DNA of 64,000 bases from Meiothermus sp. (GTDB lineage: Bacteria > Deinococcota > Deinococci > Deinococcales > Thermaceae), in contig NZ_JANXCG010000062.1 in NCBI RefSeq assembly GCF_025060375.1, positions 30,855 through 94,854 of the forward strand. The letters are read 5' to 3'. Position numbers and translations under genes: made by a program. Shown here piece after piece: positions 8,849 to 32,693 of the stretch (positions are counted from its first letter, which is position 1; each line of letters opens with the position of its first letter). The notes beneath the pieces were generated by a model that was given only the letters and a program-made list of their open reading frames with translations, searched no databases and had not been told where the DNA came from.

Positions 8849-9299
8849 CCGCCTCCTCTATCGCCTCGTAAGGGGGCTCCTGGGAGGGAACCTCAGCCAC
8901 CCAGGCCCAGACCACCCGCCCCTGAGGCCCCACCACATAGGCCGCCCGCTGGGAAAAACCAGGCAGGCCCTTCAGGCTGATCTCCAGACCAAAAGCCCGG
9001 GTAGCCTCGCGGTTGTAGTCGGAGAGCAGGGGAAAACTCAGCCCTAGCTTTTCCGCATAGGCCCCCAGCGTCCAGGGGGTGTCCACGCTGATTCCGTAGA
9101 CCCGTGCCCCCAGGGCGTTGTAGGTGGCAAGCCCATCCCGCACGGCGCAAAGCTCCCTCTCGCAAACCCGGGTGTGCGCCGCCGGGAAGAACAGGAGGAC
9201 CAAAGGGCCATCCCCTGCGAGCTCGGGAAGCCGGCAGGGCTCTACGCTGGGAGTGTACACGACAACATCGGGCAGAAGGTCGCCTACCTGAACTGCCAT
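8817..9299 (-). CDS. Peroxiredoxin (AhpC/TSA, BCP-like)
   Basis: FFPAAHTRVCERELC (PxxxTxxC) and LLSDYNREATRAFG. Confidence 0.9.
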   Translation of the reverse strand: MAVQVGDLLPDVVVYTPSVEPCRLPELAGDGPLVLLFFPAAHTRVCERELCAVRDGLATYNALGARVYGISVDTPWTLGAYAEKLGLSFPLLSDYNREATRAFGLEISLKGLPGFSQRAAYVVGPQGRVVWAWVAEVPSQEPPYEAIEEAVRAARAGASP

Positions 9300-9305
9300 G
9301 AGGCC

Positions 9306-9311
9306 AGTTTA
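9306..9311 (-). promoter_or_regulatory. -10 element (TAAACT) for a leaderless peroxiredoxin transcript
   Basis: TAAACT-GGCCTC-ATG on the minus strand, no SD. Confidence 0.6.
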
Positions 9312-9479
9312 CCCCACATGCCCTGGGCCAACCGTGGGGTACTGAGGAGTGGCCCACAGCCCGCCCTGGGCGGTGGGGCTGGCCCTGGGAGGCTACGCCT
9401 TCATCTTCCGCCGGCTCGAGGCCGGGCTCCGGGCCGCGCGGGGGCCTAGGGCCAGAAAAAGTGTGCTACCTCGCATTCC

Positions 9480-9514
9480 TATAGTTGAAACCTCATTATT
9501 TTAGAGCTAAATAA
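9480..9514 (+). promoter_or_regulatory. AT-rich promoter/operator region of the anthranilate cluster
   Basis: TATAGT at 9480-9485 and palindrome TTTAG-AG-CTAAA at 9500-9511 in an otherwise GC-rich context. Confidence 0.45.
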
Positions 9515-9554
9515 AAAGTGCGGGCAGGGACCAACGTCTGCCTTGGGGGAGAGG

Positions 9555-17214: not shown

Positions 17215-18444
17215 GTGGTTCCCGCCGAGATACAGGCCCTTGACCGGGCCGACCCCCTGGCCGCCAAGCGGGAAGCCTTTGTGATTCCCGAAGGGCTGAT
17301 CTATCTGGACGGCAACTCCCTGGGGCCCCTGCCCAAGCGGGTGGCGGAGCGGATGCGGGAGGTGGTGGAGGGGCAGTGGGGGCAGGACCTGATCCGGAGC
17401 TGGAACCTGCACGGCTGGATTGGCCTGCCGCAGAGGCTCGGGGCCCGAATCGCCCGGCTCATAGGGGCCGAGGCAGACGAGGTGGTGGTGGCCGACTCCA
17501 CCTCGGTCAACCTCTTCAAGGTGCTTCTGGCCGCACTGGAGCTGCGCCCCGGCCGCAGGGTCATCCTATCCGAGGTGGACAACTTCCCCACCGACCTTTA
17601 CATCGCCCAGGGCCTGCGGGAGCTTCGGGAAGGCTGCGAGCTGCGCTTTGTGCCGAGGGAGGAAATTGAAGCCGCCCTGGACGAGGAGACCGCGGTGCTC
17701 CTGCTCACCGAGGTGGACTACCGCACCGGATACCGCCACGACATGGCCCACCTGACCCGGCTGGCTCAGGCCAGAGGGGCGCTGGTGGTCTGGGACCTGG
17801 CCCACAGCGCGGGGGCCTTCCCGGTACACCTGAACGCCTGCGGGGTGGACTTCGCGGTGGGCTGCGGCTACAAGTACCTGAACGGAGGTCCAGGAGCGCC
17901 CGCCTTTCTCTACGTGGCGCGGCGCCACCAGAAGTCCCTCAAACCCTTCCTGACCGGCTGGATGGGCCACCAAGACCCCTTTGCCTTCAGCGTCACCTAC
18001 ACCCCAGCAGAGGGCCTGCGCCGGATGACCGTGGGCACCCCACCTATCCTCTCCATGAGCGCGCTGGAAGCAGCTTTGGAGGTGTGGGAAGGGGTAGAGA
18101 TGGCGCAGGTACGGGAAAAATCGCTCAGGCTTACCGACTTGTTCATAGAGCGGATGGCCCCCCTGGCGGCCCGCTACGGCCTCGAGCTGGCCACCCCCCT
18201 CGAGCACGCCCGCCGGGGCAGCCAGGTGGCCTACCGCCACCCCGAGGGCTACGCCATCGTGCAGGCCCTTATCGCCCAGGGGGTGGTGGGCGACTTCCGC
18301 CACCCAAACATCCTGCGCTTCGGCTTTGGACCTCTCTACCTGCGCTACGCCGACGTGTACGAGGCGGTGGAGCGGTTCGAGCGGGTGATGGCGCAGGGGC
18401 TCTGGCAGGACCCCCGCTACCGGGAGAAAGCCCAGGTGACCTGA
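17215..18444 (+). CDS. kynU: Kynureninase
   Basis: YLDGNSLG, DSTSVNLFK, WDLAHSAG and GCGYKYLNGGPG (PLP lysine). Confidence 0.95.
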   Translation: MVPAEIQALDRADPLAAKREAFVIPEGLIYLDGNSLGPLPKRVAERMREVVEGQWGQDLIRSWNLHGWIGLPQRLGARIARLIGAEADEVVVADSTSVNLFKVLLAALELRPGRRVILSEVDNFPTDLYIAQGLRELREGCELRFVPREEIEAALDEETAVLLLTEVDYRTGYRHDMAHLTRLAQARGALVVWDLAHSAGAFPVHLNACGVDFAVGCGYKYLNGGPGAPAFLYVARRHQKSLKPFLTGWMGHQDPFAFSVTYTPAEGLRRMTVGTPPILSMSALEAALEVWEGVEMAQVREKSLRLTDLFIERMAPLAARYGLELATPLEHARRGSQVAYRHPEGYAIVQALIAQGVVGDFRHPNILRFGFGPLYLRYADVYEAVERFERVMAQGLWQDPRYREKAQVT

Positions 18445-19268
18445 TGAAGGACACGACCTACCGGACCGCCCACACCGACTTTAGCCGGGAGCTTTCCTAC
18501 GGCGACTACCTTCGGCTGGACGCACTCCTAGAGGCCCAGCAACCCCTGACCAAGGCCCACGACGAGGTGCTCTTCATCGTGGTGCACCAGGTGCAGGAAC
18601 TCTGGATGAAGCTCATCATCCACGAGCTCACCTCGGCGATGGCCTTGCTGGAGGAAGGCGTGGTGGACCCAGCCTTGAAGATGCTCAGCCGGGTCTGCCG
18701 GGCCCAGGAGCAGATGAGCCAAAGCTGGGAGGTGCTGACCACCATGACCCCGGCGGACTACCTGGAGTTCCGCTGGGCCTTCGGCAAAGCCTCGGGGTTT
18801 CAGTCCTATCAGTATCGGCTGATTGAATTCCTCCTTGGCAACAAGCAACCCTTCATGATGCGCCCCCACCGCCACCGGCCCGAGTACGGGAGGCTCGAGC
18901 GGGCCCTGCACAGCCCCAGCCTCTACGACCTCTCCTTGCGGCTCCTCCACAGACGGGGCCTAAGCATCCCCTCGGAGGTGCTGGCGCGCGACTTCGCCCA
19001 GCCCTACCAGCCCCACCCGGCGGTAGCGGAAGCCTGGCTGGCGGTCTACCGCCAAACCGAGCGCTACTGGGAGCTGTACTACCTGGCCGAGAAGCTGGTG
19101 GATGTGGAGGAGAATTTCCGCCGCTGGCGCTTCAACCACCTGACCACCGTGGAGCGCACCATCGGCCACAAACAGGGCACCGGGGGTACCGCCGGCGTCC
19201 CCTATCTGAGGCGGGCCTTGGAGGTCGTGCTCTTCCCCGAGCTCTGGCAGGTGCGGACACTCCTTTAG
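18444..19268 (+). CDS. kynA: Tryptophan 2,3-dioxygenase
   Basis: SYGDYLRLD, HDEVLFIVVHQ, ASGFQSYQYR and KQGTGGTAG. TGATG overlap fixes the start at 18444, not 18084. Confidence 0.96.
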   Translation: MKDTTYRTAHTDFSRELSYGDYLRLDALLEAQQPLTKAHDEVLFIVVHQVQELWMKLIIHELTSAMALLEEGVVDPALKMLSRVCRAQEQMSQSWEVLTTMTPADYLEFRWAFGKASGFQSYQYRLIEFLLGNKQPFMMRPHRHRPEYGRLERALHSPSLYDLSLRLLHRRGLSIPSEVLARDFAQPYQPHPAVAEAWLAVYRQTERYWELYYLAEKLVDVEENFRRWRFNHLTTVERTIGHKQGTGGTAGVPYLRRALEVVLFPELWQVRTLL

Positions 19269-19312
19269 ATGAGGAAAACCCTTATGATGCAGCGAAAACC
19301 GGAGGAGGAAAG

Positions 19313-20479
19313 ATGAAAAAGGCAATCTGGCTGTTAGTCCTTCTGGCCCTCGGCTTCTCGGCATCGCTGGCCCAAACCCGCACGGTCAAGGTCGGCTTCG
19401 TGAGCACCCTCTCAGGTGGAGGGGCTGCTTTGGGCATTGACGTTCGGGACGGTTTCAACCTGGCCATAAGGCTCCTTGGCAACCAGCTCGGGGGGCTGCC
19501 GGTGGAGGTGCTGGTGGCCGACGACCAGCAGAACCCCGACGTAGCCCGCCAGGCGGTGGACCGGATGCTCAAGCGCGACCGGGTGGACTTCATGACCGGT
19601 ATCATCTTCTCCAACGTCCTCCTGGCCGTGGGCGAGGCCATCTTCGAGGAAAAGGTTTTCTACATCAGCCCCAACGCCGGCCCCTCAGAGTACGCCGGGG
19701 AGCAGTGCAGCCCCTACTTCATCAACGTGGCTTGGCAGAACGACAACCTGCACGAGGCGATGGGCCAGTACGTGCAGACCCGCCGCTTCGAGAACGCCTT
19801 CCTGCTGGCCCCCAACTACCCCGCCGGACGCGACGCCCTCACCGGCTTCAAGCGCTTCTTCAAGGGCAAGGTGGTGGCCGAGGTCTACCACCGCTTGGGC
19901 CAGCTCGATTTCTCCGCTGAGATCGCCCAGATCCGCGCGGTGCGGCCCAAGGCGGTCTATGCCTTTGAGCCCGGAGCCATGGGGGTCAACTTCATCAAGC
20001 AGTACGCCGAGGCCGGCCTCTTGCGCGAGATACCCCTCTTCCTACCGGGCTTCTCCGCTGATGCGGACGTAATCCGCGCGGTGGGGCGGGCCATGGTAGG
20101 CATCTACAACAGCTCGCAGTGGGCACTTGAGCTCAACAACCCGGTCAACCAGCGCTTCGTAGAGGAGTTCCGCAAGGCCTATGGCCGCATCCCCACGCTC
20201 TACGCCTCGCAGGGCTACGACGCGGCCCTGCTCCTGGACACCGCCATCAAGGCGGTGGGGGGCGACCTGAGCAAGAAGGATGAGCTGCGCAAGGCCATGC
20301 TGGCCGGATTCAACAGCACCCGCGGGTTCATCCGCTTCAGCCCCAACGGCTACCCCATCCAGAACTACTACCTGCGGCAGGTGATCCAGCAGCCCGGTGG
20401 CGAGATCGTGAACCGGCTGGTGGGAACCATCTTCACCAACCACCGCGACGCCTACGTGGATAGGTGCAAGCTCCGCTAG
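19313..20479 (+). CDS. ABC transporter substrate-binding protein (HAAT/branched-chain type, aromatic-acid subgroup)
   Basis: Signal peptide, VKVGFVSTLSG, DDQQNPD and QGYDAA. Confidence 0.88.
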   Translation: MKKAIWLLVLLALGFSASLAQTRTVKVGFVSTLSGGGAALGIDVRDGFNLAIRLLGNQLGGLPVEVLVADDQQNPDVARQAVDRMLKRDRVDFMTGIIFSNVLLAVGEAIFEEKVFYISPNAGPSEYAGEQCSPYFINVAWQNDNLHEAMGQYVQTRRFENAFLLAPNYPAGRDALTGFKRFFKGKVVAEVYHRLGQLDFSAEIAQIRAVRPKAVYAFEPGAMGVNFIKQYAEAGLLREIPLFLPGFSADADVIRAVGRAMVGIYNSSQWALELNNPVNQRFVEEFRKAYGRIPTLYASQGYDAALLLDTAIKAVGGDLSKKDELRKAMLAGFNSTRGFIRFSPNGYPIQNYYLRQVIQQPGGEIVNRLVGTIFTNHRDAYVDRCKLR

Positions 20480-20481
20480 GT

Positions 20482-21402
20482 ATGCCCCCCTCACTCCTAA
20501 TAGAGCAGCTCCTGAATGGCCTTCAGTTTGGCCTGATGCTCTTCCTGCTGGCCGCTGGCCTCACCCTGGTCTTCGGCATCATGGACATGATCAACCTCGC
20601 CCACGGCTCGCTCTACATGATTGGGGCCTACCTGACCGCAACCTTCGTGGGCCTGCTGGGCAACTTCTGGCTAGCGGTACTCCTGGCGGTCCTGGGCACC
20701 GCCCTTGTCGGGATGCTTTTGGAGCTCAGCGTACTGCGCCAGCTCTACCGGCGCGACCACCTTTCGCAGGTGCTGGCCACCTTCGCGCTCATTCTCATCA
20801 TCAACGAGGTGGTGCGCATCATCTGGGGCTCCCAACCCCTTCTGCTCTCCGCCCCCGAGGGGCTTTCAGGACCGGTGGAGCTCCTGCCGGGGCTGAGCTA
20901 CTCGGCCTACCGGCTCACCATCATCGGGGTGGGGCTTTTGGTGGCGGCGCTCCTCTTCTGGCTGGTCAACCGCACCCGGGTCGGGATGTGGCTCCGGGCC
21001 GGGGCTTCCAACCGCGAGATGGCCCAGGCCATGGGGGTGCCCATCCGCCCCCTCTTCACCCTGCTCTTCGGGGTGGGTGCGGGGCTGTGCGCCGTCGCCG
21101 GGGCCTTCTTGGGGCCCATCCTGGCGGTGCAGATTGGGATGGGCGAGGGCATCCTGATCCTGGCCTTTGTGGTCATCGTGATCGGCGGGATTGGCTCCAT
21201 CAAGGGAGCCCTGGTGGGGGCCCTGCTGGTGGGCACCGTGGACACCGCGGGGCGGGCCTTCCTACCCCTCCTGCTCTCGCAGGTGGCCTCCCCCGAGGTG
21301 GCGGCCAACCTCGGGCCGGCCCTGGCCTCCATCCTGATCTACCTCCTGATGGCGGCGGTGCTCTTCTTCAGACCCCAGGGGCTCTTCCCGGCCCGCACCT
21401 AG
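20482..21402 (+). CDS. LivH-like ABC permease
   Basis: LNGLQFG..AAGLTLVFGIMDMINLAHG and VIGGIGS. Confidence 0.9.
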   Translation: MPPSLLIEQLLNGLQFGLMLFLLAAGLTLVFGIMDMINLAHGSLYMIGAYLTATFVGLLGNFWLAVLLAVLGTALVGMLLELSVLRQLYRRDHLSQVLATFALILIINEVVRIIWGSQPLLLSAPEGLSGPVELLPGLSYSAYRLTIIGVGLLVAALLFWLVNRTRVGMWLRAGASNREMAQAMGVPIRPLFTLLFGVGAGLCAVAGAFLGPILAVQIGMGEGILILAFVVIVIGGIGSIKGALVGALLVGTVDTAGRAFLPLLLSQVASPEVAANLGPALASILIYLLMAAVLFFRPQGLFPART

Positions 21403-21412
21403 GAGGAGCCCG

Positions 21413-22324
21413 ATGCGCTGGCCCCTCCTTCTGTTGGTCCTCTTCCTGCTGGCGTTTCCCCCCATCGCCAGCGCAACGGGGCTCGAGTTCTACCAGGGCC
21501 TCCTGACCAAGATCATGATCCTGGCCCTGGCCGCCAGCAGCCTGAACCTGATCCTGGGGTATGGGGGTATGGTGAGCTTCGGCCACGCCGCCTACTTCGG
21601 CCTGGGGGCCTACGCCGTGGCCATCCTGATGCGCGAAGGGATAAGCTCGGGCTGGGTCATCTGGGGGGTGGCGGTGGGGCTTAGCGCCTTGCTGGCCCTT
21701 CTCATCGGGGCCATCTGCCTGAGGACCCGGGGGGTCTACTTCATCATGATCACCCTGGCCTTCGCCCAGATGATCTACTACCTGGTGGTCTCCTTCAAGC
21801 AGTACGGCGGGGAGGACGGCCTCAGGGCCCGGCGGCCCGAGTTTGGCCTCTTTGAGCTAACCGATACCGCCCTTTACTACCTCAGCCTGGCGGTGCTGGC
21901 CGGGGCCCTGTACCTTCTGCACCGGCTGGTTCACTCGCGCTTTGGGCGGGTGCTCCAGGCCATCCGCGAGAACGAGTCCCGGGCTTTGGCCCTGGGTTAC
22001 CCGGTTTTCCACTTCCAGCTCGTGGCCTTTGTGCTCTCGGGGGCCCTGGCCGGGCTGGCTGGGGCCCTGATGGCCCACTACACCCAGTACGCCTCGCCCA
22101 ACCTGCTGGCCTGGCAGCAGTCCGGCCACCTGATGATGATGGTCATCCTGGGCGGGGTGGGGCAGTTTTGGGGCGGGGTGCTGGGGGCGGCAACGCTCTC
22201 CATCGTGGAGGAGGTCCTGCAGGACCTCACCATCCATTGGCAGCTTGGGGTGGGGCTGATCCTGCTGTTCATCGTGCTCTTCGCCCCCAAAGGGCTGGCC
22301 GGTCTCCTGAGGAGGAGGCCATGA
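21413..22324 (+). CDS. LivM-like ABC permease
   Basis: LNLILGYGGMVSFGHAAYFG, AIRENE and MVILGG. Confidence 0.9.
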   Translation: MRWPLLLLVLFLLAFPPIASATGLEFYQGLLTKIMILALAASSLNLILGYGGMVSFGHAAYFGLGAYAVAILMREGISSGWVIWGVAVGLSALLALLIGAICLRTRGVYFIMITLAFAQMIYYLVVSFKQYGGEDGLRARRPEFGLFELTDTALYYLSLAVLAGALYLLHRLVHSRFGRVLQAIRENESRALALGYPVFHFQLVAFVLSGALAGLAGALMAHYTQYASPNLLAWQQSGHLMMMVILGGVGQFWGGVLGAATLSIVEEVLQDLTIHWQLGVGLILLFIVLFAPKGLAGLLRRRP

Positions 22325-23073
22325 TTCTCCTGGAAACCCAACAGCTCAGCAAGCGGTTCGGCGGGCTGCTGGCAGTCAACAGCTGCAATCTGGAGGTGAG
22401 GGCAGGAGAGGTCCACGCACTAATTGGCCCTAACGGCGCGGGCAAGACCACCCTGCTCAACCTCATAACCGGTGTGCTGGCCCCCAGCAAGGGCCAGATT
22501 CGCTTTGACGGCCAGGAGATCACCCACCTGCCAGCCCATGCCCGGGTGCACCGGGGGCTGGCCCGCACCTTCCAGATCACCAACCTGTTCAAAAACTACA
22601 CCGTGCGGGTGAACCTCGAGCTGGCCGTGCAGGCCCGCCGGGGCAGCAGTTTTCGCTTCTGGCAGCCCGTCGCAAAGGAAAGGGCCCTTACCGAGGAAGC
22701 CTTCCAGGTGGCCGAACGGGTGGGTTTGGGGAGGCGCTTTGAGGTGGTGGCGGGCCAGCTCTCCCACGGGGAGCAGCGGGCCCTCGAGGTGGCCCTGGCC
22801 CTGGCCTCCAAGCCCAAGCTTCTGCTCCTGGACGAGCCCATGGCTGGCATGGGCCCTGAGGAGTCAGCGCGAATGGTGGAGCTTATAGAAAGCCTGCGCC
22901 AAGAGTTCACCATCCTGCTGGTCGAGCACGATATGGACGCCGTCTTCCGGCTGGCCCAGCGCATCTCGGTGCTGGTCTACGGCCAAGTCATCGCCACTGG
23001 AACCCCAGAGGAAATCCGGGCTAACCCCGAGGTGCACAGGGCCTACCTGGGCGACGAAGGGGGTGCGGCGTGA
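22321..23073 (+). CDS. LivG-like ABC ATPase
   Basis: GPNGAGKT, LSHGEQR, LLLDEP and EHD. ATGA overlap fixes the start at 22321. Confidence 0.93.
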   Translation: MILLETQQLSKRFGGLLAVNSCNLEVRAGEVHALIGPNGAGKTTLLNLITGVLAPSKGQIRFDGQEITHLPAHARVHRGLARTFQITNLFKNYTVRVNLELAVQARRGSSFRFWQPVAKERALTEEAFQVAERVGLGRRFEVVAGQLSHGEQRALEVALALASKPKLLLLDEPMAGMGPEESARMVELIESLRQEFTILLVEHDMDAVFRLAQRISVLVYGQVIATGTPEEIRANPEVHRAYLGDEGGAA

Positions 23074-23780
23074 ACCCCTTGCTGCAGATTGAAGGCTTGG
23101 AAGCCTTCTATGGACCCAGCCAGGTGCTCTTTGGGGTGAGCCTCGAGGTCGGCCAGGGCCAGGTAGCCACCCTGCTGGGACGCAATGGCATGGGCAAGAC
23201 GAGCACCGTGCGCTCCATCATGGGCCTCATCCCAACCATGCGAGGCCGTATCCGCTTTGCCGGGCAACCCATTGAGGGCCTGCCTCCAGAGCGAATTGCC
23301 GCCCTAGGCATCGGCCTGGTGCCTGAGGGGCGCCAGATCTTTCCCAACCTCACCGTGGAGGAAAACCTCGTCGCCTTCGCCGCCAACCGCAGCCAAAGCC
23401 CAAACCCCTGGACCCTTGGGCGGGTCTATGAGCTTTTCCCCAGGCTACGGGAGCGGCGCCACCACCTGGGCCACCAGCTTTCCGGAGGCGAGCAGCAGAT
23501 GCTGGCCATTGGCCGGGCCCTCATGACCAATCCCCGCCTGCTCATCCTGGACGAGGCCACCGAGGGCCTGGCCCCCCTGCTGCGCGAGGAAATCTGGCGG
23601 GTACTCCGCCTGCTCAAGGAGGGTGGCCAGACCATACTGGTGATCGACAAGTACCTGGAGCGCCTATTCCCCCTGGCCGACCAGCACACCATCCTGGAGC
23701 GGGGCCGGGTGGTCTGGCAGGGAACCTCCCAAGAGCTCAAGGCTAGCCCCGAGGTTTGGAAGAGGTATCTGAGCGTATGA
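23070..23780 (+). CDS. LivF-like ABC ATPase
   Basis: GRNGMGKT, LSGGEQQMLAIGRAL and LDEATEGLAP. Confidence 0.93.
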   Translation: MNPLLQIEGLEAFYGPSQVLFGVSLEVGQGQVATLLGRNGMGKTSTVRSIMGLIPTMRGRIRFAGQPIEGLPPERIAALGIGLVPEGRQIFPNLTVEENLVAFAANRSQSPNPWTLGRVYELFPRLRERRHHLGHQLSGGEQQMLAIGRALMTNPRLLILDEATEGLAPLLREEIWRVLRLLKEGGQTILVIDKYLERLFPLADQHTILERGRVVWQGTSQELKASPEVWKRYLSV

Positions 23781-24589
23781 GCGAACCCTCCTGGATAGAA
23801 CTCCAGTACAGCCCCCGTCTTACCGTGCCCGACGCGGCCGCATACTTCCAGCGCTGGGCCGAAGCCTCCCGGGTCGCCCGTGAAGCCTTACCCCACCACG
23901 CCAACCTGCGGTACGGCCCAGGCGAGAAGGAAACCCTTGACCTCTTCCCTGCCCCAGAAAGCCGCTACCTGCTCGTCTTCATCCACGGCGGCTACTGGCG
24001 GGCCTTCGATAAGAACGACTTCTCCTGGCTGGCCCCGCCCCTGGTAGAGGCTGGTCTCAGCGTGGCGGTGCTGAACTACGCTCTCTGCCCAGCGGTAACC
24101 ATTCCAGAGATTACCGAGCAGTGTCGCCGGGCAGTGGCCTGGCTGCACCGCGAGGCCCCCCGCTACGGTGCACACGGCCCCTTGCTCATCAGCGGGCACT
24201 CGGCGGGAGGGCACCTGACAGCCGAACTCTTCGCCACCCCCTGGGAAGCCTACGACGTACCCCAGGAGGCCTTCGCAGGGGGCATCGCCATCAGCGGGCT
24301 TTTTGACCTGGAGCCCCTTCTACAGGTGTCCTTCAACACCGAGTTGCGCCTTGACCAAAAGAGCGCCAAGGCCTCGAGCCCCGTTCACAAGCGACCCACC
24401 CTGAAGGTGCCCTTGGTGCTGGCATTAGGGGCGCTGGAATCAGAGGAGTTCCACCGGCAAAGCCAGCTCCTCAACCAGGCCTGGCCCGGGGTCTGTCACG
24501 GGATCATCCGGGTCCCTGAGACCCATCACTTCAGCGTCCTAGACGCCCTGGCTGACCCCAGCAGCCCGCTTTGGCGGCCCTTCTCCTAG
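23777..24589 (+). CDS. Alpha/beta hydrolase, probable AFMID-type kynurenine formamidase
   Basis: FIHGGYW oxyanion motif, GHSAGG nucleophile and HHF. Last gene of the kynU-kynA cluster. Confidence 0.7.
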   Translation: MSEPSWIELQYSPRLTVPDAAAYFQRWAEASRVAREALPHHANLRYGPGEKETLDLFPAPESRYLLVFIHGGYWRAFDKNDFSWLAPPLVEAGLSVAVLNYALCPAVTIPEITEQCRRAVAWLHREAPRYGAHGPLLISGHSAGGHLTAELFATPWEAYDVPQEAFAGGIAISGLFDLEPLLQVSFNTELRLDQKSAKASSPVHKRPTLKVPLVLALGALESEEFHRQSQLLNQAWPGVCHGIIRVPETHHFSVLDALADPSSPLWRPFS

Positions 24590-24590
24590 G

Positions 24591-26474
24591 CTACTCCTCC
24601 AAGGTGGAAAGGTCGCCTGGGTCCTGCCCCAACGCCTGGGCCCTCAAAAGCCGCCGTAGGATTTTGCCTGAGCGGGTTTTGGGCAGCCTGTCCACGAAGA
24701 CCAGCTCCCCTGGCGTAGCGATGGGGCCGAGCTGGTGCCGCACATGCTGGACAATCTCCTGCTGCAAGGTAGGGGTCTTCTCCCAACCCGCCCGCAGCAC
24801 CACAAAGGCCTGGATGCGCTCGCCCTTAATGGGGTCGGGCACGCCAATCACCGCAGCCTCAGCCACAGCAGGATAGGCAACCAGGGCGCTCTCCACATCG
24901 GCGGTGCCAATGCGGTGCCCCGCCACATTGAGCACATCGTCAGCCCGGCCCAGCACCGCAAAGTAGCCGTCCTCGCTCCGGCTGGCCACATCCCCCGCGG
25001 CATAGAACCCGCCGGGAATCTCCTCCCAGTACCGGGTGTAGCGGCCATGGTCGCCCCAGATGGTGCGCATCATGTGAGGAAAAGGCCGGCCCAGGACGAG
25101 CAGCCCTCCCCTGCCTGGGGGCACCTCCTTTCCCTCAGCGTCCACTACCTTTGCCTCCACCCCGGGCAACGGCACCCCCACAAAACCGGGGCGGGCCTCG
25201 AGGGTCAAGGGAGTGCCCAGGGTGGGCCCCCCCAGCTCGGTCTGCCACCAGTTGTCCACCACAAAACCGCGCCGGCCCTCATCCATAAGGTGGGTGTGGG
25301 CCCAGCGCCAGGCCTCGGGGTTCAGCGGCTCGCCGGCCACCGCCAAAAGCCGCAACGAGGAAAGGTCGTGCCGAGCCGGCCATTCTGGGCCGTACTTCAT
25401 AAACATGCGCACGGCGGTGGGGGCGGTGAACATTACGTTCACGCGGTAGCGCTCCACGGCCCCCCAGAGGGCGGAGGGGTCAGGGTAGTCGGGAGCTCCT
25501 TCGCGCAACACGCTGGTAATGCCCAAAAGCAGGGGGGCATAGACGATGTAGCTGTGCCCCACAATCCAGCCGATGTCCGAGGTAGCCCAGAAGACCTCGT
25601 CCTCCTTCACATCAAAAAAGGTCCGCAGGTGGTAGGCAACCCCCACCATGTACCCTCCGTGCACGTGCACCACCCCCTTGGGCTTCCCGGTGGAGCCCGA
25701 GGTGTAGAGGATGAAAAGGGGGTGCTCGCTGTCTAAAGGCACCGCCCCTGCCTCGGGTTTGTGCCCCCAAAGGAGGGCGTTAAAGTCGCTGTGGCGAGGG
25801 CCCTCAGGCACCGCCTTGCTCCGGCTGAACCAGACCACGTGCACGTCCAAGCCCTGGGTGGCCTGCAAAACGATTGACGCCAGGTCAACCGGCTTTCCCC
25901 GTCGGTAGCTCACATCCCCAGCCACCACCACCCTGGCCCCTGCATCCTGTATGCGCTCCCGCAGAGCTGCCACCCCCAGGCCGGCGTAGACCACCGAGTG
26001 GACCGCCCCAATCCGAGCGCAGGCCAGCATGGCAATGATCCCTTCGGGGGTCAGGGGCATGTAGACGATGACCCGGTCCCCTTCCCGAACCCCAAGGGCC
26101 TTGAGGGCGGTGGCAAAGCGGGCCACCCGGTCCAGAAGCTCCCCATAGGTGAGCTTCTGCTCCCTGCCGTCCTCCCCCAGGTACAAAAGGGCTACCCGGT
26201 TGCGGGTAGGCCCCTTAGCGTGGCGGTCCAGCGCATTGTAGACGATGTTGGTCTGGCCGCCCAAAAACCAGCGGTGGTCGGGGAAGTTCCACTCCAAGAC
26301 CCGCTCAAAGGGCTGGAACCAGCTGAAGCGCCGGGCCTCCTCCCCCCAAAACCCCTCCGGGTCCTCCAGGCTGCGGTTATACTCAGCCCAAAAGTCGCGC
26401 AGATTGGCGGCCTGCCGCTCCCACTCGGGCGCTAGATAACCAACCTGGGCCTTCAAAAGCTGCTCAATTTGCAT
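24591..26474 (-). CDS. Acetate/short-chain acyl-CoA ligase (ACS paralog)
   Basis: [30 protein letters not shown] and KTRSGKILRR. AGGAGG RBS before ATG 26474. Confidence 0.92.
   Translation of the reverse strand: MQIEQLLKAQVGYLAPEWERQAANLRDFWAEYNRSLEDPEGFWGEEARRFSWFQPFERVLEWNFPDHRWFLGGQTNIVYNALDRHAKGPTRNRVALLYLGEDGREQKLTYGELLDRVARFATALKALGVREGDRVIVYMPLTPEGIIAMLACARIGAVHSVVYAGLGVAALRERIQDAGARVVVAGDVSYRRGKPVDLASIVLQATQGLDVHVVWFSRSKAVPEGPRHSDFNALLWGHKPEAGAVPLDSEHPLFILYTSGSTGKPKGVVHVHGGYMVGVAYHLRTFFDVKEDEVFWATSDIGWIVGHSYIVYAPLLLGITSVLREGAPDYPDPSALWGAVERYRVNVMFTAPTAVRMFMKYGPEWPARHDLSSLRLLAVAGEPLNPEAWRWAHTHLMDEGRRGFVVDNWWQTELGGPTLGTPLTLEARPGFVGVPLPGVEAKVVDAEGKEVPPGRGGLLVLGRPFPHMMRTIWGDHGRYTRYWEEIPGGFYAAGDVASRSEDGYFAVLGRADDVLNVAGHRIGTADVESALVAYPAVAEAAVIGVPDPIKGERIQAFVVLRAGWEKTPTLQQEIVQHVRHQLGPIATPGELVFVDRLPKTRSGKILRRLLRAQALGQDPGDLSTLEE
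25642..25733. repeat. 92-bp exact repeat, copy 1 (ACS P-loop region)
   Basis: Identical base for base to 27524-27615. Confidence 0.9.
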
Positions 26475-26484
26475 AAAGCCTCCT

Positions 26485-29136
26485 TTAGGGTTCCAGAGTG
26501 GAAAGGTCACCGGGGTCAACGCCCAGCTCCTGGGCTTTTAGCAAACGGCGCATGATTTTCCCGCTTTTGGTGCGGGGTAGGCGCTCCACGATGAGCACCT
26601 CAGTGGCCAGGCTCAGGTTGCCCAGTTGCCGGCGCAGGTGGGATTTCAGCTTATCCGAAAGAACCGCTCGAGCCTCCAGGCTGGCCTCGCGGGTCTTCAG
26701 GACCACGTAGACCTTAACCACCTCCCCCCCCTCAGGGTCGGGCACCCCTATTGCCGCGGCCTCGGCCACGGCGGGGTGGGCGAGCATGGCGCCTTCTATC
26801 TCGGCGGTGCCAATCCGGAGCTCCCCGGCCTTAATCACATCGTCCGAGCGGCCTAGAAGGGCGATGTACCCCTCCTCATCCCGCACCGCAATGTCGCCGG
26901 TAGCGTAGCATCCCGGGATGCGGCTCCACTGCTCGACGTAGCGCCTATCGTCGTTCCAAAAGGTGCGCATGAAGTGGGGGAAGGGCCTGCAGATGACCAG
27001 ATGCCCCTTCTCGCCCGGAGGGAGTTCCCGGCCCAGGCCATCCACCACCCGCATCTCCACCCCTGGTAGGGGCAGGCCGGCCTTTCCGGGCTTGGCGGGC
27101 ATGCACACCGGGGTGGAAAGGCAAGGCCCACCGGTCTCGGTCTGCCACCAGTTGTCCAGCACGTGGGCCAGGTGATTCCGAGCCCAGCGCCAGACCTCCG
27201 GAGCCAGGTACTCCCCCACACAGCCCACCAAGCGCAAGGCGCTGAGGTCGGCATCCTTGGCCCACTCCTCCCCGTGCCGGCGGAAGGCGCGCAGCCAGGT
27301 AGGGCTGGTCAGCAAGACGTTGACCCCGCACGCCTCTAGGGTCTCGTAGAAGCTGCTGGGGTCGGGGTAGTCCAGCCGTTCAGCCCTGAGCACGGTGGTC
27401 AGGCCCTCCAAAAGAGGGGCGTAGAGCGCATAGCTGTGGCCCACAATCCAGGAGAGGTCGGCGGTAGCCCACATCACGTCCCCCTCCTTGAGGTCAAAGA
27501 GGGTGCGCAGGTGGTAGGTGATGCCCACCATGTACCCTCCGTGCACGTGCACCACCCCCTTGGGCTTCCCGGTGGAGCCCGAGGTGTAGAGGATGAAAAG
27601 GGGGTGCTCGCTGTCCACTGGAAGGGCCGGGGTATTGGGCCGGTGAGCCTCCACGAGCTCCCAAAACTCCAAGGACCGGGCGTTGCCACCCCGGCTAAAC
27701 CAGAGCACCTCCAGGTCCAGGCCCTGGACTGCCTCCTCTATCAGGGAGGCAAAGGGCAGGACACGCCCTCCCTGGTACATCCGGTCGGCCGCCACCAGAA
27801 GCTTAGCCCCGGTGTCCAAAAGGCGCTCCCGCAAGGCCTGGGCCCCCATCCCCGCCGGCACCGCCACGTGCACCGCCCCTATACGGGCGCAGGCCAAAAA
27901 GGTGAGGGCCATCTCCAGACCGGTGGGCATGTAGACCGCCACCCGGTCGCCCAGCCCAATCCCCAGGGCCCGCAAGCCCCCGGCCAGCCTCGAGACGAGA
28001 TCGCGCAGCTCGCGGTAGGTGAGCTTGTGCACAGCGCCGTCACCCGCCAAGGCGATGAGGGCCAGGTGATTGCGGCGGGGACCTTCGGCGTAGCGGTCCA
28101 GCGCATTGTAGGTGATGTTGGTCTCGGCCCCCACAAACCAACGGTGGTGAGGCGGCTCGAGGCAGCGAACCTCCTTCCAAGGAGAAAACCAAACAAAACG
28201 CCGGGCCCAGCCCGCCCAGAAGCCCTCGGGGTCCCTTAGGCTCCGCTCGTACTCGGCCCGATAATCGCGCAGGTTGGCCTCAGCTACCAGACGGGGTGGA
28301 GCGGGCACCGCCTTCTCCTCGCAAGCGGGGGTGGGAGACGGGTCAGGGGGGCTCTCCAGGGGCTGGGATAGTGGCTCCGAGGCCACCACCGCCGGCTCGG
28401 TGGGGTGGTAGCTCGAGGCCGCCTTGGCCACCTCCTGCACCGCCTGCACCAGCCGGGTAAAAGCGTAGGGGAAACGCCGGGAAGGCACCACCACCCCCAA
28501 AGCCCCCAGCACCCGCCCCTCCGGGTCAAAAATGGGGGCTGCCAGGCTAGAAAGCCCCAAGGCGTGCTCCTCTATCTCCACCGCAAACCCCATGCGCCGA
28601 ACCTTGGAGAGCTCCTCCTCCAGGGTCAGAGGGTCGGTCAGGGTCAGCGGGGTGTAGGCCCGTAGGTTCTGCAGGTGGCCCGCCTGCACCTCGGGCTCCA
28701 AAAAGGCCAACACCGCCTTGCCCAAGGCCAGGGCGTGAAAACCCTCGGCAATTACTCCCTCCACCCCACTCAGCTTGGGCAGCCCCTGCCGACCGCGGGT
28801 GCTGAGCCGGAGCCGGCCCTCCCGGTCAAGCAAGGCCAGGTAGGTCCGTTCGCGGGTGCGTAGGTAAAGCTCCTCTAGAGCGTCAGATAGACGCTCAGGC
28901 TCCACCAACGGGGCAGAGGGCTTGGCCAAAGCAGTCCTGGAAAGCTTGTAGAGGCTTCCTTCCCGCTCGGCAAAACCCTCAGCCACTAGGCTGGCCAGAA
29001 GGGCATAGGCAGTGGAGAGGCTTTTACCCAAAAAGGCCGCTAGCCGCGCTGCCTCAACCCCCTCAGGGTGCTCGGCCAGGTAGGCCAGCACCCTGAGGGC
29101 GGTTTGCACGGTGGTGAGCTTCCGACTTTGGGCCAT
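26485..29136 (-). CDS. IclR-family regulator fused in frame to an acetyl-CoA-synthetase-like domain (883 aa)
   Basis: IclR HTH (TALRVLAYLAEH..LGKSLSTAYALLASL) and IclR effector domain (HALALGKAVLA..GFAVEIEE..LAAPIF..GALGV), then a Pro-rich linker and a full ACS domain. No internal stop. Confidence 0.88.
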   Translation of the reverse strand: MAQSRKLTTVQTALRVLAYLAEHPEGVEAARLAAFLGKSLSTAYALLASLVAEGFAEREGSLYKLSRTALAKPSAPLVEPERLSDALEELYLRTRERTYLALLDREGRLRLSTRGRQGLPKLSGVEGVIAEGFHALALGKAVLAFLEPEVQAGHLQNLRAYTPLTLTDPLTLEEELSKVRRMGFAVEIEEHALGLSSLAAPIFDPEGRVLGALGVVVPSRRFPYAFTRLVQAVQEVAKAASSYHPTEPAVVASEPLSQPLESPPDPSPTPACEEKAVPAPPRLVAEANLRDYRAEYERSLRDPEGFWAGWARRFVWFSPWKEVRCLEPPHHRWFVGAETNITYNALDRYAEGPRRNHLALIALAGDGAVHKLTYRELRDLVSRLAGGLRALGIGLGDRVAVYMPTGLEMALTFLACARIGAVHVAVPAGMGAQALRERLLDTGAKLLVAADRMYQGGRVLPFASLIEEAVQGLDLEVLWFSRGGNARSLEFWELVEAHRPNTPALPVDSEHPLFILYTSGSTGKPKGVVHVHGGYMVGITYHLRTLFDLKEGDVMWATADLSWIVGHSYALYAPLLEGLTTVLRAERLDYPDPSSFYETLEACGVNVLLTSPTWLRAFRRHGEEWAKDADLSALRLVGCVGEYLAPEVWRWARNHLAHVLDNWWQTETGGPCLSTPVCMPAKPGKAGLPLPGVEMRVVDGLGRELPPGEKGHLVICRPFPHFMRTFWNDDRRYVEQWSRIPGCYATGDIAVRDEEGYIALLGRSDDVIKAGELRIGTAEIEGAMLAHPAVAEAAAIGVPDPEGGEVVKVYVVLKTREASLEARAVLSDKLKSHLRRQLGNLSLATEVLIVERLPRTKSGKIMRRLLKAQELGVDPGDLSTLEP
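27524..27615. repeat. 92-bp exact repeat, copy 2
   Basis: Identical to 25642-25733. Confidence 0.9.
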
Positions 29137-29272
29137 GGTGAGCAAAGGGTTCCCAGCGGCCAACGAAAAAGCGCTGGCTTCAGCTATGCACTTCAGCCGA
29201 CATAATGGTCCTGAGCTCGTCCAAATGTCAAGTAATGGCCGAATTCCTACATTTGACAAACCCCTGGATTTC

Positions 29273-29301
29273 TTGACGACGCCTGAGGCACCGCCTATGC
29301 T
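29273..29301 (+). promoter_or_regulatory. Sigma70-type promoter of acsA
   Basis: TTGACG (29273-29278), 17 nt, TATGCT (29296-29301). Confidence 0.75.
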
Positions 29302-29357
29302 CACAATCAAAAAGACCCCCTGGATTGGGTACATCTTTGCTCTAGGAGGGGCAGCCT

Positions 29358-31304
29358 ATGGAAAAAATCGAAGCGGTTCTAAAGGAGGAGCGGGTTTTTT
29401 ACCCCTCCGAGGCCTTTCAGCAGAAAGCGCACATCCGCCAGCTGCAAGAGTACGAGGCCCTCTACAAGGAGAGCCTAGAACAGCCCGAGGCATTCTGGGG
29501 CCGTGTGGCCGGGGAGCTACACTGGTTCCAACCCTGGCAAAAGGTGCTGGAGTGGAACCCTCCCAATGCCAAATGGTTCATCGGGGGCAGGCTCAACCTC
29601 TCCTACAACTGCTTGGACCGGCACCTGGAAACCCGGGGCAACAAGGCGGCCATCATCTTTGAGGGTGAGCCAGGGGACTCCCGGACCCTCACCTACCAAC
29701 AGCTCCACCGGGAGGTCTGCAAGTTTGCCAATGTGCTGAAAAGCCTGGGTGTGGGGAAGGGTGACCGGGTTACCATCTACCTACCCATGATTCCCGAGGC
29801 GGCCATTGCCATGCTCGCCTGCGTGCGCATTGGGGCAGTGCACTCGGTGGTCTTCGGCGGCTTCTCGGCCTCCGCCTTGGCCGACCGCATCAACGATGCT
29901 CAGGCCAAGGTGCTCATCACCGCCGATGGGGGTTACCGACGGGGGAGCATCGTGCCTCTGAAGGCCAACAGCGACGAGGCCCTGGCCGATGCCAAGAGCA
30001 TCCAGCACGTGGTGGTGATCCGGCGCACTGGGCAGGAAGTCCCCATGCAGGCTGGTCGGGACCATTGGTACCACGAGCTGATGGCGGGCGCCTCCCCCCA
30101 CTGCCCCGCCGAACCCATGGACGCCGAAGACCCCCTCTTCATCCTCTACACCTCGGGCTCCACCGGCAAACCCAAGGGCGTGCTGCACACCACCGGGGGC
30201 TACTCCGTCTACACCTACCTCACGGCCCGCTACATCTTTGACCTGCAGGAGAACGACACCTACTTCTGCACCGCTGATGTGGGCTGGATCACCGGGCACA
30301 GCTACGTGGTCTATGGCCTCTTACAAAACGGGGCCACCACCCTTATGTACGAAGGAGCGCCCAACTTCCCCGACGAGGGGCGCATCTGGAGCATCATTGA
30401 AAAGTACCGGGTGAACATCCTCTACACCGCCCCTACGGCCATCCGGGCTTTCATGAAGTGGGGGGAGGAGTGGCCGCGCAAGTACGACCTCTCCAGCCTG
30501 CGCCTGCTGGGGTCGGTAGGGGAACCCATCAACCCCGAGGCCTGGCTGTGGTACTACCGGGTGATTGGCCAGGAGCGCTGCCCCATTGTGGACACCTGGT
30601 GGCAGACCGAGACCGGGGGCATCATGATCACCACCCTGCCCGGGGTGCATCCTATGAAGCCTGGCCACGCTGGCAAGCCCTTCTTCGGGGTCAAGCCCGA
30701 GATTGTGGACAGCTCGGGGCAGCCGGTCACCAATCCCGACGAAGGCGGCCATCTGATCATCGAGCGACCCTGGCCCTCCATGTTGCGCACCGTGTGGGGC
30801 GACCCTGAGCGCTTCGAGCGGCAGTACTTCTCCCAGTACCCGGGCCGGTACTTCACCGGTGATGGAGCTAAGCGCGATGCCGAGGGCTACTACATGATCC
30901 TGGGCCGGGTAGACGATGTGCTCAACGTATCGGGCCACCGCTTGGGCACCATGGAGATTGAAAGCGCCTTGGTCGCCCACCCCGCCGTGGCTGAGGCCGC
31001 GGTGGTAGGCCGCCCCGACCCCATCAAGGGTGAGGGCATCGTGGCTTTTGTCACCCTGAAGAGCGGCCACAGCGCCAGCCCCGAGCTGGCCCAGGAACTC
31101 AAGGCCCACGTAGTCAAGATGATCGGGGCCATTGCTCGTCCCGATGAGATTCGTATAACCGACGCGCTGCCCAAGACCCGCTCGGGAAAGATCATGCGCC
31201 GTTTGCTCCGCCAGGTGGCCTCAGGCGAGGAAATCAAGGGGGACACCAGCACCCTGGAAGACCGCGCGGTGGTGGAGCGGCTCAAGACCTCTAGCGCGCA
31301 TTGA
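29358..31304 (+). CDS. acsA: Acetyl-CoA synthetase (canonical)
   Basis: [44 protein letters not shown] and [10 protein letters not shown]. Confidence 0.96.
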
Positions 31305-31354
31305 GCCAAACCCGCCAGATAAAGCCCCCAAAGCGGCCTTCGGAGGGGTTTGCA

Positions 31355-31383
31355 TTGACCCTCTCGAGCCCACCCCCTATACT
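31355..31383 (+). promoter_or_regulatory. Sigma70-type promoter of the TetR gene
   Basis: TTGACC, 17 nt, TATACT. Confidence 0.8.
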
Positions 31384-31393
31384 CTTCGCCAGG

Positions 31394-32005
31394 GTGGCAA
31401 ACAACCGTCCGTTTGAAGAGAGAAGGCCGGAAAGGGGCAGCCGTCGGGACGAAATCCTAAACGCGGCCGGGCGGCTGTTCAGCCGGAGGGGCTTCCATGC
31501 CACCTCCATGCGCGACCTGGCCCGGGCAGTGAACCTCCAGGGGGGAAGCCTCTACGCCCACATCGCTTCCAAAGAAGAGGTGCTTTTTGAGCTGGTTAAC
31601 CGCGCCGCCGACGAGTTCCTAAACGCTGCCCGGGCTATTCCCGAAAACCTCCCTGCCAAAGAGCGGCTCACCAGCCTGGTCCGCTCCCACCTGCAGGTAA
31701 TTGTGCGGGAACTGGACAACGCCACGGTCTTCTTTCACGAGTGGAAGTTCCTGAGGCCCGAGCTGCAAGAGAGGATAAAGGCTCGCCGAGACGAGTACGA
31801 AAGTCACTTCCGCCAAACCATTGAGGCGGGGGTCAAGCAAGGGGAGTTTCAGGTAGAGGACGTTCGGCTCTCCGCGCTCTTTGTTCTCTCTGCGTTGAAC
31901 TGGACGTACCACTGGTACCGCCCAGAGGGGAAGCTGAGTCTGGAGGAGCTGGCGCAGGCCTACTCCAGCCTAATCCTCCGCACCTTAGGGGCTAAGGCGC
32001 CCTAA
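31394..32005 (+). CDS. TetR-family regulator (PaaR/KstR2-like)
   Basis: EILNAAGRLFSRRGFHATSMRDLA..GSLYAHIASKEEVL and LNWTYHWYRPEG. The GTG start is inferred from the promoter position. Confidence 0.88.
   Translation: MANNRPFEERRPERGSRRDEILNAAGRLFSRRGFHATSMRDLARAVNLQGGSLYAHIASKEEVLFELVNRAADEFLNAARAIPENLPAKERLTSLVRSHLQVIVRELDNATVFFHEWKFLRPELQERIKARRDEYESHFRQTIEAGVKQGEFQVEDVRLSALFVLSALNWTYHWYRPEGKLSLEELAQAYSSLILRTLGAKAP
31398..31415. promoter_or_regulatory. Candidate TetR operator CAAACAA-CCGT-CCGTTTG
   Basis: Imperfect 18-bp palindrome just downstream of the promoter. Matches 39510-39527. Confidence 0.6.
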
Positions 32006-32165: not shown

Positions 32166-32693
32166 ATGGTGATCCTACGCCCACTGGTCATGAGCGACCT
32201 AAGCCAAATTCTGGCCTGGAGCCACGACGAGGCTTTCTGCCTGGCCAACGGCTGGCCCTTGGGCCTGTCTTCCGAGAAGCTACAGGACTGGTTTGTACGG
32301 CTTTTGAACAACCCTCCCGCCGACCTGGTGCGCCGCGGCATTGTGCTGGCGGGGGCGGAGCACCCCGAAGAGCTGCTGGTGGGGTTCGTTGACCTGCGCG
32401 ACCTGAACCTGCTGGAAAAGCGGGCGCGGTTTCGCATCGCCATTGGGGAGGAAGCCTACCGAAACCAGGGGGTGGACTACGCAGCCGGAAAGCTGATGCT
32501 GGCCCACGGCTTCAACGAGCTGGGCCTGGAGCGCATCACCGCTGAGGAGCGCGGCTCCAACGTTAGGATGCGCAGCTTGATGGAAAGGCTGGGCTTCACC
32601 CTAGAAGGCATCCTACGCCAGCACGAAACCTATCAAGGCATCAGGGAGGACATCTACCTTTACGGGATGCTGCGCCAGGAGTTCAAGGGTTAG
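32166..32693 (+). CDS. GNAT acetyltransferase, RimJ/RimL-like
   Basis: VILRPL, VGFVDL, AHGFNELGLERI and MERLGFTLEGILR. Confidence 0.85.
   Translation: MVILRPLVMSDLSQILAWSHDEAFCLANGWPLGLSSEKLQDWFVRLLNNPPADLVRRGIVLAGAEHPEELLVGFVDLRDLNLLEKRARFRIAIGEEAYRNQGVDYAAGKLMLAHGFNELGLERITAEERGSNVRMRSLMERLGFTLEGILRQHETYQGIREDIYLYGMLRQEFKG

Follow-up and report, generated by a model that had tools for sequence, protein, structure and literature searches.

The window analysed here is a stretch of 64,000 nucleotides from a Meiothermus sp. genome (contig NZ_JANXCG010000062.1), and the subject of this report is a gene on its minus strand, at 26485..29136, in which an IclR-family transcription factor and a whole AMP-forming acetyl-CoA synthetase (ACS) are encoded as one polypeptide. 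The fusion gene comprises 883 codons and a TAA stop at 26485-26487, and its limits were set from its open reading frame (ORF), its translation and a conserved start. The ORF list gives a single open frame at 26485..29334 (minus strand), within which the ATG at 29136 is the supported start, yielding a protein of 883 amino acids: the N-terminus MAQSRKLTTVQ is identical in 12 of 12 same-genus sequences (the window and 11 relatives), the start position is homologous in Thermus, Calidithermus-type genomes and Marinithermus, and the 66 codons 5' of this ATG overlie the promoter region and are not conserved. The gene lies between two genes for stand-alone ACS proteins. Canonical acsA (29358..31304, plus strand; 1083 bits for NF001208 and 1028 bits for TIGR02188) is divergent from the fusion, and acs2 (24591..26474, minus strand), which encodes an ACS paralogue of 627 amino acids, follows it in the same operon.

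The N-terminal part of the protein holds an IclR-type winged helix-turn-helix (HTH) at 28960..29109 (minus strand; amino acids 10-59), which matches HTH_IclR (PF09339) with 41.1 bits against a Pfam cut-off of 22, and an IclR effector-binding and oligomerisation domain at 28402..28899 (minus strand; amino acids ~80-245), in which IclR_C (PF01614) is matched over amino acids 133-241 with 77.5 bits against a cut-off of 24. Both defining domains place the protein in the IclR family. As residues 1-225 are colinear with full-length IclR crystal structures (residues 4-225 of 249 in 1mkm and residues 3-225 in 3r4k), the regulator part is complete and not a fragment; IclR_C is also colinear with the C-domains of E. 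coli IclR and AllR. A poorly conserved, flexible linker rich in Pro, Ser and Glu follows at 28285..28401 (minus strand; amino acids 246-284). Behind it, the ACS N-terminal extension and large N-domain occupy 26845..28284 (minus strand; amino acids 285-764), with Pfam matches to ACAS_N (PF16177) at amino acids 292-345 and to AMP-binding (PF00501) at 354-726 (277 bits), and mapping to S. enterica Acs locates the P-loop at 518-527, the acetate-pocket Trp664 and the WWQTETGG motif at 663-670. The mobile C-terminal domain at 26488..26844 (minus strand; amino acids 765-883) is matched by AMP-binding_C (PF13193) over amino acids 779-860 and carries hinge Asp765, Arg774 and the catalytic Lys860, which corresponds to Lys609 of S. 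enterica Acs.

In an AlphaFold2 model (66 homologues), the mean predicted local distance difference test score (pLDDT) was 85.7 and both the IclR and the ACS parts were confidently folded, with values of 85-92 for the IclR effector domain; residues 246-273 were disordered (pLDDT ~32). A first-pass annotation, made from the letters of the DNA alone, had described an 883-amino-acid frame with a full IclR protein over about the first 245 amino acids, a Pro/Ser/Glu-rich linker, which is located here at 246-284, and a complete ACS fold, and this description agrees with the ORF, the Pfam matches and the alignments.

Conservation and selection of the fusion

The occurrence of the fusion was surveyed by a six-frame search of 151 genomes of the phylum, 49 of them Thermaceae. 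A full-length, stop-free frame was found in 41 of the 49 Thermaceae genomes, and one further match in another family, from a Marinithermus-type genome (G043), brings the count to 42; Deinococcus and the other remaining families yielded stand-alone relatives only. Among the eight Thermaceae genomes with no full-length match, at most three are cut by contig ends, two have partial matches and three have no gene at the locus. In the contig-end cases, one match begins where its contig begins, and the promoter architecture described below is retained at two loci close to contig ends. With a word-indexed search of proteins, 58 clusters of 820-910 amino acids were obtained in which all domains are present, with sources in Meiothermus (73-85% identity), Allomeiothermus silvanus, Marinithermus hydrothermalis (63%) and many Thermus species (~55%), as well as metagenome proteins (~50%) that form a clade of uncultured 'Deinococcales bacterium' metagenome-assembled genomes (MAGs). 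The first-pass annotation had raised both the conservation of the fusion in Thermaceae and the prospect that relatives might carry a stop in the linker; the fusion is widely conserved in the family, and all 42 full-length matches are stop-free.

When the IclR module alone was searched against 1.84 billion representative proteins, no other long fusion was present among the top 150 matches, which were ordinary IclR proteins of 250-320 amino acids, at most 45% identical to the query, and some tandem double IclRs. With no other long fusion among these top 150 matches, the fusion is taken to be one lineage-specific invention within Deinococcales. Several proteins of 527-574 amino acids matched the IclR query in two or three places, in several cases within the second half of the protein, and some of these may be tandem double-IclR proteins.

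Selection was gauged by comparing the window gene with a 95%-identical relative. The ratio of nonsynonymous to synonymous substitution rates (dN/dS) was 0.014 in the HTH, 0.034 in IclR_C, 0.067 in the ACS N-domain, 0.036 in the ACS C-domain and 0.19 in the linker, for which the full range was 0.19-0.69; strong purifying selection acts on each of the folded modules. Conservation between clades peaks in the HTH, with 66% identity between Meiothermus and Thermus, and is lowest in the linker, with 24% identity and lengths that differ by ~15 residues between clades. From this pattern of selection and cross-clade conservation, we infer that all three folded modules are in use and that the linker serves as a tether. 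The linker contains no in-frame internal start with a ribosome-binding site that is conserved across relatives, and a scan of 24400-29500 detected no promoter-like site inside the fusion gene, and an internal start or promoter from which a separate ACS would be produced was rejected on these two scans.

Residues of the two half-reactions in the ACS module

Residues of the ACS module were mapped to S. enterica Acs via HMMER alignment to 2p2f and tabulated for 58 fusions and 57 stand-alone relatives. In a tree of ACS modules, the fused modules form a single clade with a support of 1.0, and they lie on average 1.52 substitutions per site away from the common node, compared to 0.34 for the acs2-type paralogues (~4.4-fold). 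The fusion scores below the curated NCBI cut-offs of both AcsA families named above (594.2 vs 657 and 587.6 vs 724.95), and acs2 and acsA of the window both score above them.

The residues required for adenylation are identical in this protein, including the P-loop (T264-G273), W414, Q415-G419, Y496/D500, R515, D517 and K609. Throughout the Thermaceae fusions, the P-loop, Trp413/Trp414, the QTETG motif, Tyr496/Asp500, Arg515, Asp517, Arg526 and Lys609 are invariant or nearly so, with the exceptions in the Thermus clade of Lys270 of the P-loop, which is variable, and of D517, at which Asp and Glu replace each other conservatively. The Thermaceae fusions also keep the PxxxxGK acetylation motif around Lys860.

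The residues that serve the CoA half-reaction present a different picture. Glu772 (codon at 26821..26823, minus strand) aligns to Gly524 in the pantetheine tunnel of S. enterica Acs, a site that is Glu or Asp in 57 of the 58 fusions and Gly in 55 of the 57 stand-alone relatives and in both paralogues of the window, with AGHR retained at the site in the stand-alone relatives from Deinococcus. The acidic residue at this site goes with the fusion. Gln455 (codon at 27772..27774, minus strand) aligns to Arg191 of S. enterica Acs (Arg193 of AcsMt), which binds the phosphate of CoA; 22 of the 25 Meiothermus-type fusions carry Gln at this site, and 56 of the 57 stand-alone relatives carry Arg. In the Thermus clade it is instead Arg194 that is replaced by Gln (16/22) and Arg584 that is replaced by Leu, Met or Phe (19/22). 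The site of His525 is variable among fusions and is Leu in this protein. In the Deinococcales MAG clade the changes reach the first half-reaction as well, as TG of the P-loop reads GD, Arg526 is replaced by Leu, and Lys609 by Thr, Ser, Val or Asn. Judged from these alignments, the residues of the first half-reaction have been retained in the Thermaceae and those of the second dismantled, along clade-specific routes that followed a shared acidic substitution in the tunnel.

Additional substitutions that are near-invariant in the fused clade were seen at residues 365, 427, 586-587, 597, 611, 769 and 855, examples relative to stand-alone ACS being Glu to Gly365, Tyr to Pro427, Gly-Ala to Glu/Asp-Arg/Lys at 586-587 and Asn to Lys769. 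They represent new constraints rather than simple decay.

Published measurements give an indication of what such changes may do. The Arg193Gln substitution of AcsMt lowers kcat/Km for CoA ~12,000-fold with little effect on the Km for ATP, and the Gly of the pantetheine tunnel is highly conserved in the superfamily, with a proposed requirement for it in opening of the tunnel (PMC10455477). The AlphaFold model of the fusion has a root-mean-square deviation of 3.1-3.4 A to C. neoformans Acs1 (5k8f, 5u29 and 7kno) and of ~10 A to structures in the thioester conformation; 5k8f represents the adenylation conformation, and the S. enterica type represents the thioester conformation (PMC8383264). The model thus gives a weak hint that the ACS module may adopt the adenylation conformation.

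The ACS fold had been described as complete in the first-pass annotation, which also suggested that the protein might couple acetate, ATP and CoA status to transcription. The fold is indeed complete; the enzyme is probably incomplete, with residues of the CoA half-reaction replaced. As the adenylation residues are retained and those for CoA replaced, a role in sensing acetate and ATP has more support than one in sensing CoA. With a score below the AcsA cut-off and residues of the thioester half-reaction absent, the protein should not be filed as an acetate--CoA ligase. In work by Reger, Carney and Gulick in 2007 (Biochemistry 46:6536), Acs G524L reportedly showed normal adenylation without completing the reaction and K609A showed no adenylation.

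Gene order and the shared control region

The divergent arrangement of acsA and the fusion, to which the first-pass annotation had drawn attention in the window, is conserved in every Thermaceae locus examined, with Meiothermus, Thermus and Calidithermus-type genomes among them, and also in Marinithermus, and acsA is the likely target of regulation. Behind the fusion, acs2 begins 10 nt past the TAA stop, with an AGGAGG ribosome-binding site (26479-26484) starting right after the stop codon; its true start is the ATG at 26474 and not the TTG at 26519 given by the ORF finder. All catalytic and CoA residues are intact in acs2, and its acyl pocket differs from that of canonical AcsA at Val386 (Ala) and Thr311 (Val), which hints at a preference for a broader range of short chains such as propionate. 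The order acsA <- -> fusion-acs2 is found in Thermus oshimai and in many other genomes. In Marinithermus the order is acsA <- -> fusion-DUF4212-SSF (in Marinithermus hydrothermalis, region 8667-10655 of locus L001), with the yjcH-actP acetate-uptake pair in place of acs2, so that the operon partner behind the fusion is interchangeable yet acetate-related in Thermaceae and Marinithermus. In the Deinococcales MAGs, the fusion lies directly after holB and beside a two-component system, with no acs neighbour. The fusion gene is missing from three same-genus genomes, in two of which (G095 and G038, both larger genomes) acs2 is directly divergent from acsA; these two may serve as natural knock-outs for comparison.

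Only two promoter-like sites were detected in 24400-29500, and they lie back-to-back in the intergenic region between acsA and the fusion. The predicted promoter of the fusion operon is at 29202..29231 (minus strand; TTGACA, 18 nt, CATTAT) and the predicted acsA promoter is at 29273..29301 (plus strand; TTGACG, 17 nt, TATGCT). Between their -35 boxes lies a block of conserved sequence (29236..29268, no strand assigned) that is our candidate for the operator of the fusion protein. In the direction of the fusion gene, the consensus for Meiothermus reads GGnTTTGGCAAATGTAGGAAT, and in Thermus the block is a clear dyad, GGGTTTTT-N10-AAAAACCC; dyad symmetry reached z = 2-2.8 in Thermus, Marinithermus and some Meiothermus.

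The paired boxes GTCAAGAAA-N34-T(T/A)CTTGAC were present in 20 of 21 aligned sequences (the window and 20 relatives), and the fusion-side -35 box, T(T/A)CTTGAC, was conserved in all 19 relatives with paired boxes. Although the intergenic region varies in length from 127 to 321 bp among relatives, the spacing from one -35 box to the other was 43 bp in 18 of 20 cases, drawn from Meiothermus, Thermus, a Calidithermus-type genome and Marinithermus, with 44 bp in one Thermus and 69 bp in one other. The paired -35 box architecture is unique in this genome, and so is the central block, which scored 36 bits with a weight matrix compared to 17.6 for the next-best site. In the two fusion-less genomes with acs2 beside acsA, the -35 and -10 boxes of acsA are kept and the block and the spacing are absent; in the third, the region upstream of acsA is unrelated. 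Both promoters are near-consensus, and the acsA promoter is kept where the protein is missing, so that it would work without the protein; this favours repression, and the protein may hold down both transcription units, its own among them. Since the fusion gene heads its own operon, the protein is probably autoregulated and would control both divergent promoters.

Three further possibilities were considered and set aside. The weight matrix found no second genomic site for the central block that would point to a wider regulon. The extended -35 word TTTCTTGAC was rejected as an operator half-site, as it also occurs at a few unrelated promoter-like sites and is thus a promoter feature. Finally, the same promoter architecture was rejected for the Deinococcales MAGs, in which the sole conserved match to TCAAGA-N33-TCTTGA lies inside an ftsH-like coding region.

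Other genes in the vicinity are noted here for completeness. A TetR-family gene (TetR_N and TetR_C_24; 31301-32005, plus strand) overlaps the acsA stop codon by 4 nt, and acsA is therefore probably co-transcribed with a second regulator, of the acyl-CoA type. A gene for a GNAT acetyltransferase (Acetyltransf_3; 32166-32693, plus strand) is located 0.9 kb 3' of acsA. A co-directional block at 18084-24589 (plus strand), which encodes tryptophan 2,3-dioxygenase, a five-gene ABC importer of the branched-chain type and an alpha/beta-hydrolase (BD-FAE/Abhydrolase_3), ends convergent against acs2.

A proposed sensor of acetate and ATP

The explanation that we favour, with moderate confidence, is that the fusion protein acts locally as an IclR repressor, of its own operon too, and that its ACS-derived module is a sensor of acetate together with ATP, probably as retained acetyl-AMP. 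Under this proposal, a whole AMP-forming ACS would have been recruited to an IclR-family factor as a second sensor module. The IclR part, as a dimer or tetramer, would bind the block between the -35 boxes of the acsA promoter and the promoter of the fusion-acs2 operon and repress both. The ACS module would bind acetate and ATP and form acetyl-AMP, and since Glu772 replaces the Gly of the pantetheine tunnel and Gln455 replaces an arginine that contacts the phosphate of CoA, the CoA half-reaction is proposed to be blocked or very slow. The module would then remain loaded with acetyl-AMP in the adenylation conformation, and this ligand-bound state would act via the tether to alter oligomerisation or DNA affinity, so that both promoters would be derepressed when acetate and ATP are present.

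A more specific version of this mechanism is possible and is put forward tentatively. The module may be a one-turnover sensor of acetate and ATP, in which acetyl-AMP is made and then trapped by the Glu or Asp that plugs the tunnel; the adenylate-locked C-domain would release the IclR tetramer from the operator shared by acsA and acs2, and slow attack by CoA would reset the system, so that acetate, ATP and free CoA are integrated. Such a mechanism would resemble that of BirA and would have arisen independently in the ANL superfamily.

Several observations weigh against the proposal of an acetate and ATP sensor. The IclR part has an effector domain of its own, which could be the real sensor. Arg194, Arg526 and Arg584 are retained in the protein of the window, so that residual CoA binding is possible, and the acidic residue at the Gly524 site might be tolerated, as a Gly-to-Ala substitution at the equivalent site of MacsMa lowers kcat just ~5-fold (PMC10455477). 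In this window the dyad symmetry of the candidate operator is only weak (z = 1.1), and the joint loss of the block with the fusion gene is partly confounded by the deletion itself. In addition, adenylate formation is not a universal signal of the family, as the ACS module of the MAG clade has lost the P-loop and Lys609 and has no acs neighbours.

An intact paralogue encoded directly downstream would render enzyme activity of the fusion redundant, and this is one reason why we consider it rather unlikely that the protein is a bifunctional trigger enzyme similar to PutA, with an ACS that is active on acetyl or short-acyl substrates and an IclR part that ties turnover, or its own pocket, to transcription. 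That reading draws on the completeness of the ACS fold and the high confidence with which it is modelled, on the presence of the adenylation residues, the Trp414 acetate pocket, Arg526 and, in this protein, Arg584, on the strong purifying selection over the entire ACS module, and on the database name, acetate--CoA ligase. These points have to be set against the Glu or Asp at Gly524 in 57 of 58 fusions, the loss of CoA-phosphate arginines clade by clade, the scores under the curated AcsA cut-offs, the 4.4-fold longer branches compared to the paralogues, and the existence of one clade without P-loop and Lys609.

That same clade speaks for regarding the ACS part as a pseudoenzyme, as the MAG-clade module is catalytically dead and the HTH is nevertheless conserved. 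Here, a non-catalytic ACS module would read AMP, ATP, CoA, acetyl-CoA or the acetylation of Lys860, or would just drive oligomerisation, and IclR_C, which is intact and conserved, would bind the effector; the PxxxxGK motif kept around Lys860 in Thermaceae and a GNAT gene 3 kb away would fit the reading of acetylation. We judge this rather unlikely, since the adenylation residues are invariant or nearly so over ~47 diverged Thermaceae sequences, which is difficult to account for unless the first half-reaction is catalysed or ATP and acetate are at least bound precisely. Least of all is the fusion to be explained as an artefact of read-through, assembly or annotation, in which separate IclR and ACS genes were wrongly joined; nothing was found in favour of this highly improbable reading other than the low complexity and variability of the linker, and it was rejected on the uninterrupted frame of 42 genomes that were assembled independently, several being complete, on the 58 protein clusters, and on the lack of a conserved internal start with ribosome-binding site and of a promoter-like site within the gene.

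Comparison with known systems places the proposed sensor between several precedents. Like TM0065 (1mkm), E. coli IclR and AllR, the fusion has a winged HTH and an effector and oligomerisation domain (colinear over residues 7-223), and its gene is placed as that of a divergent, local regulator of carbon-metabolism genes; E. coli IclR controls acetate and glyoxylate genes. Unlike these regulators, it adds a 600-residue ACS behind a 40-residue tether, and the nearest stand-alone IclRs among the top 150 matches are no more than 45% identical to it. With AMP-forming ACS (S. enterica Acs, 2p2f; Chloroflexota ACS, 8rpk) it shares the fold, the domain order, 35-42% identity, the adenylation motifs, the Trp414 acetate pocket and Lys609, but it differs in the replacement of Gly524 by Glu, Arg191 by Gln and His525 by Leu, in being fused to a transcription factor, and in evolving faster than the paralogues.

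Among regulators that contain enzymes, BirA combines an HTH and an adenylate-forming active site in one polypeptide, and enzyme-bound biotinoyl-5'-AMP is its corepressor, a logic of adenylate as effector that the fusion may share. However, BirA has the unrelated fold of a biotin protein ligase, similar to class II aminoacyl-tRNA synthetases, an HTH of another family, and full enzyme activity; the Pfam scan of the fusion gave ANL and IclR domains only, with no homology to biotin protein ligase. GabR/MocR regulators consist of a GntR HTH, a long linker and an aminotransferase-like fold, the sensor carrying out a partial reaction only. The fusion is likewise a whole enzyme fold on a long flexible linker, but HTH family and enzyme superfamily differ (no GntR or aminotransferase domain was matched in Pfam), and its DNA-binding partner is already a complete two-domain regulator. 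The fusion is homologous to none of BirA, GabR/MocR and PutA, and the likeness lies in the logic. A precedent for adenylation-only ANL proteins is given by the fatty acyl-AMP ligases (FAALs, e.g. mycobacterial FadD32), ANL enzymes that still adenylate but have a structural block to the CoA half-reaction. FAALs owe this block to an insertion motif, hand the acyl group on to a carrier protein and are not regulators, unlike the fusion, in which a single residue of the pantetheine tunnel is substituted.

A full-text literature search found no characterised IclR-ACS protein, in line with the first-pass annotation, whose author knew of none. The fusion, a probable enzyme-derived sensor on a transcription factor, can already be seen in public annotation, where the enzyme names given to it mislead: 'acetate--CoA ligase' or 'AMP-binding protein' is the name of dozens of genes in Thermus and Meiothermus, and the count of ACS genes in these organisms is thereby overstated. 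The clade-wide acidic swap of the pantetheine-tunnel glycine constitutes a natural experiment on domain alternation. As thermostable proteins from cultivable Thermus and Meiothermus, the fusions are experimentally tractable and might provide a part for a thermostable acetate biosensor. If the proposed mechanism is true, acetate, a small ligand of low affinity, would be sensed in these bacteria by its conversion to a tightly bound adenylate in a disabled enzyme, and the ANL superfamily would join BirA, PutA and GabR/MocR on the short list of enzyme folds used as sensors of transcription factors.

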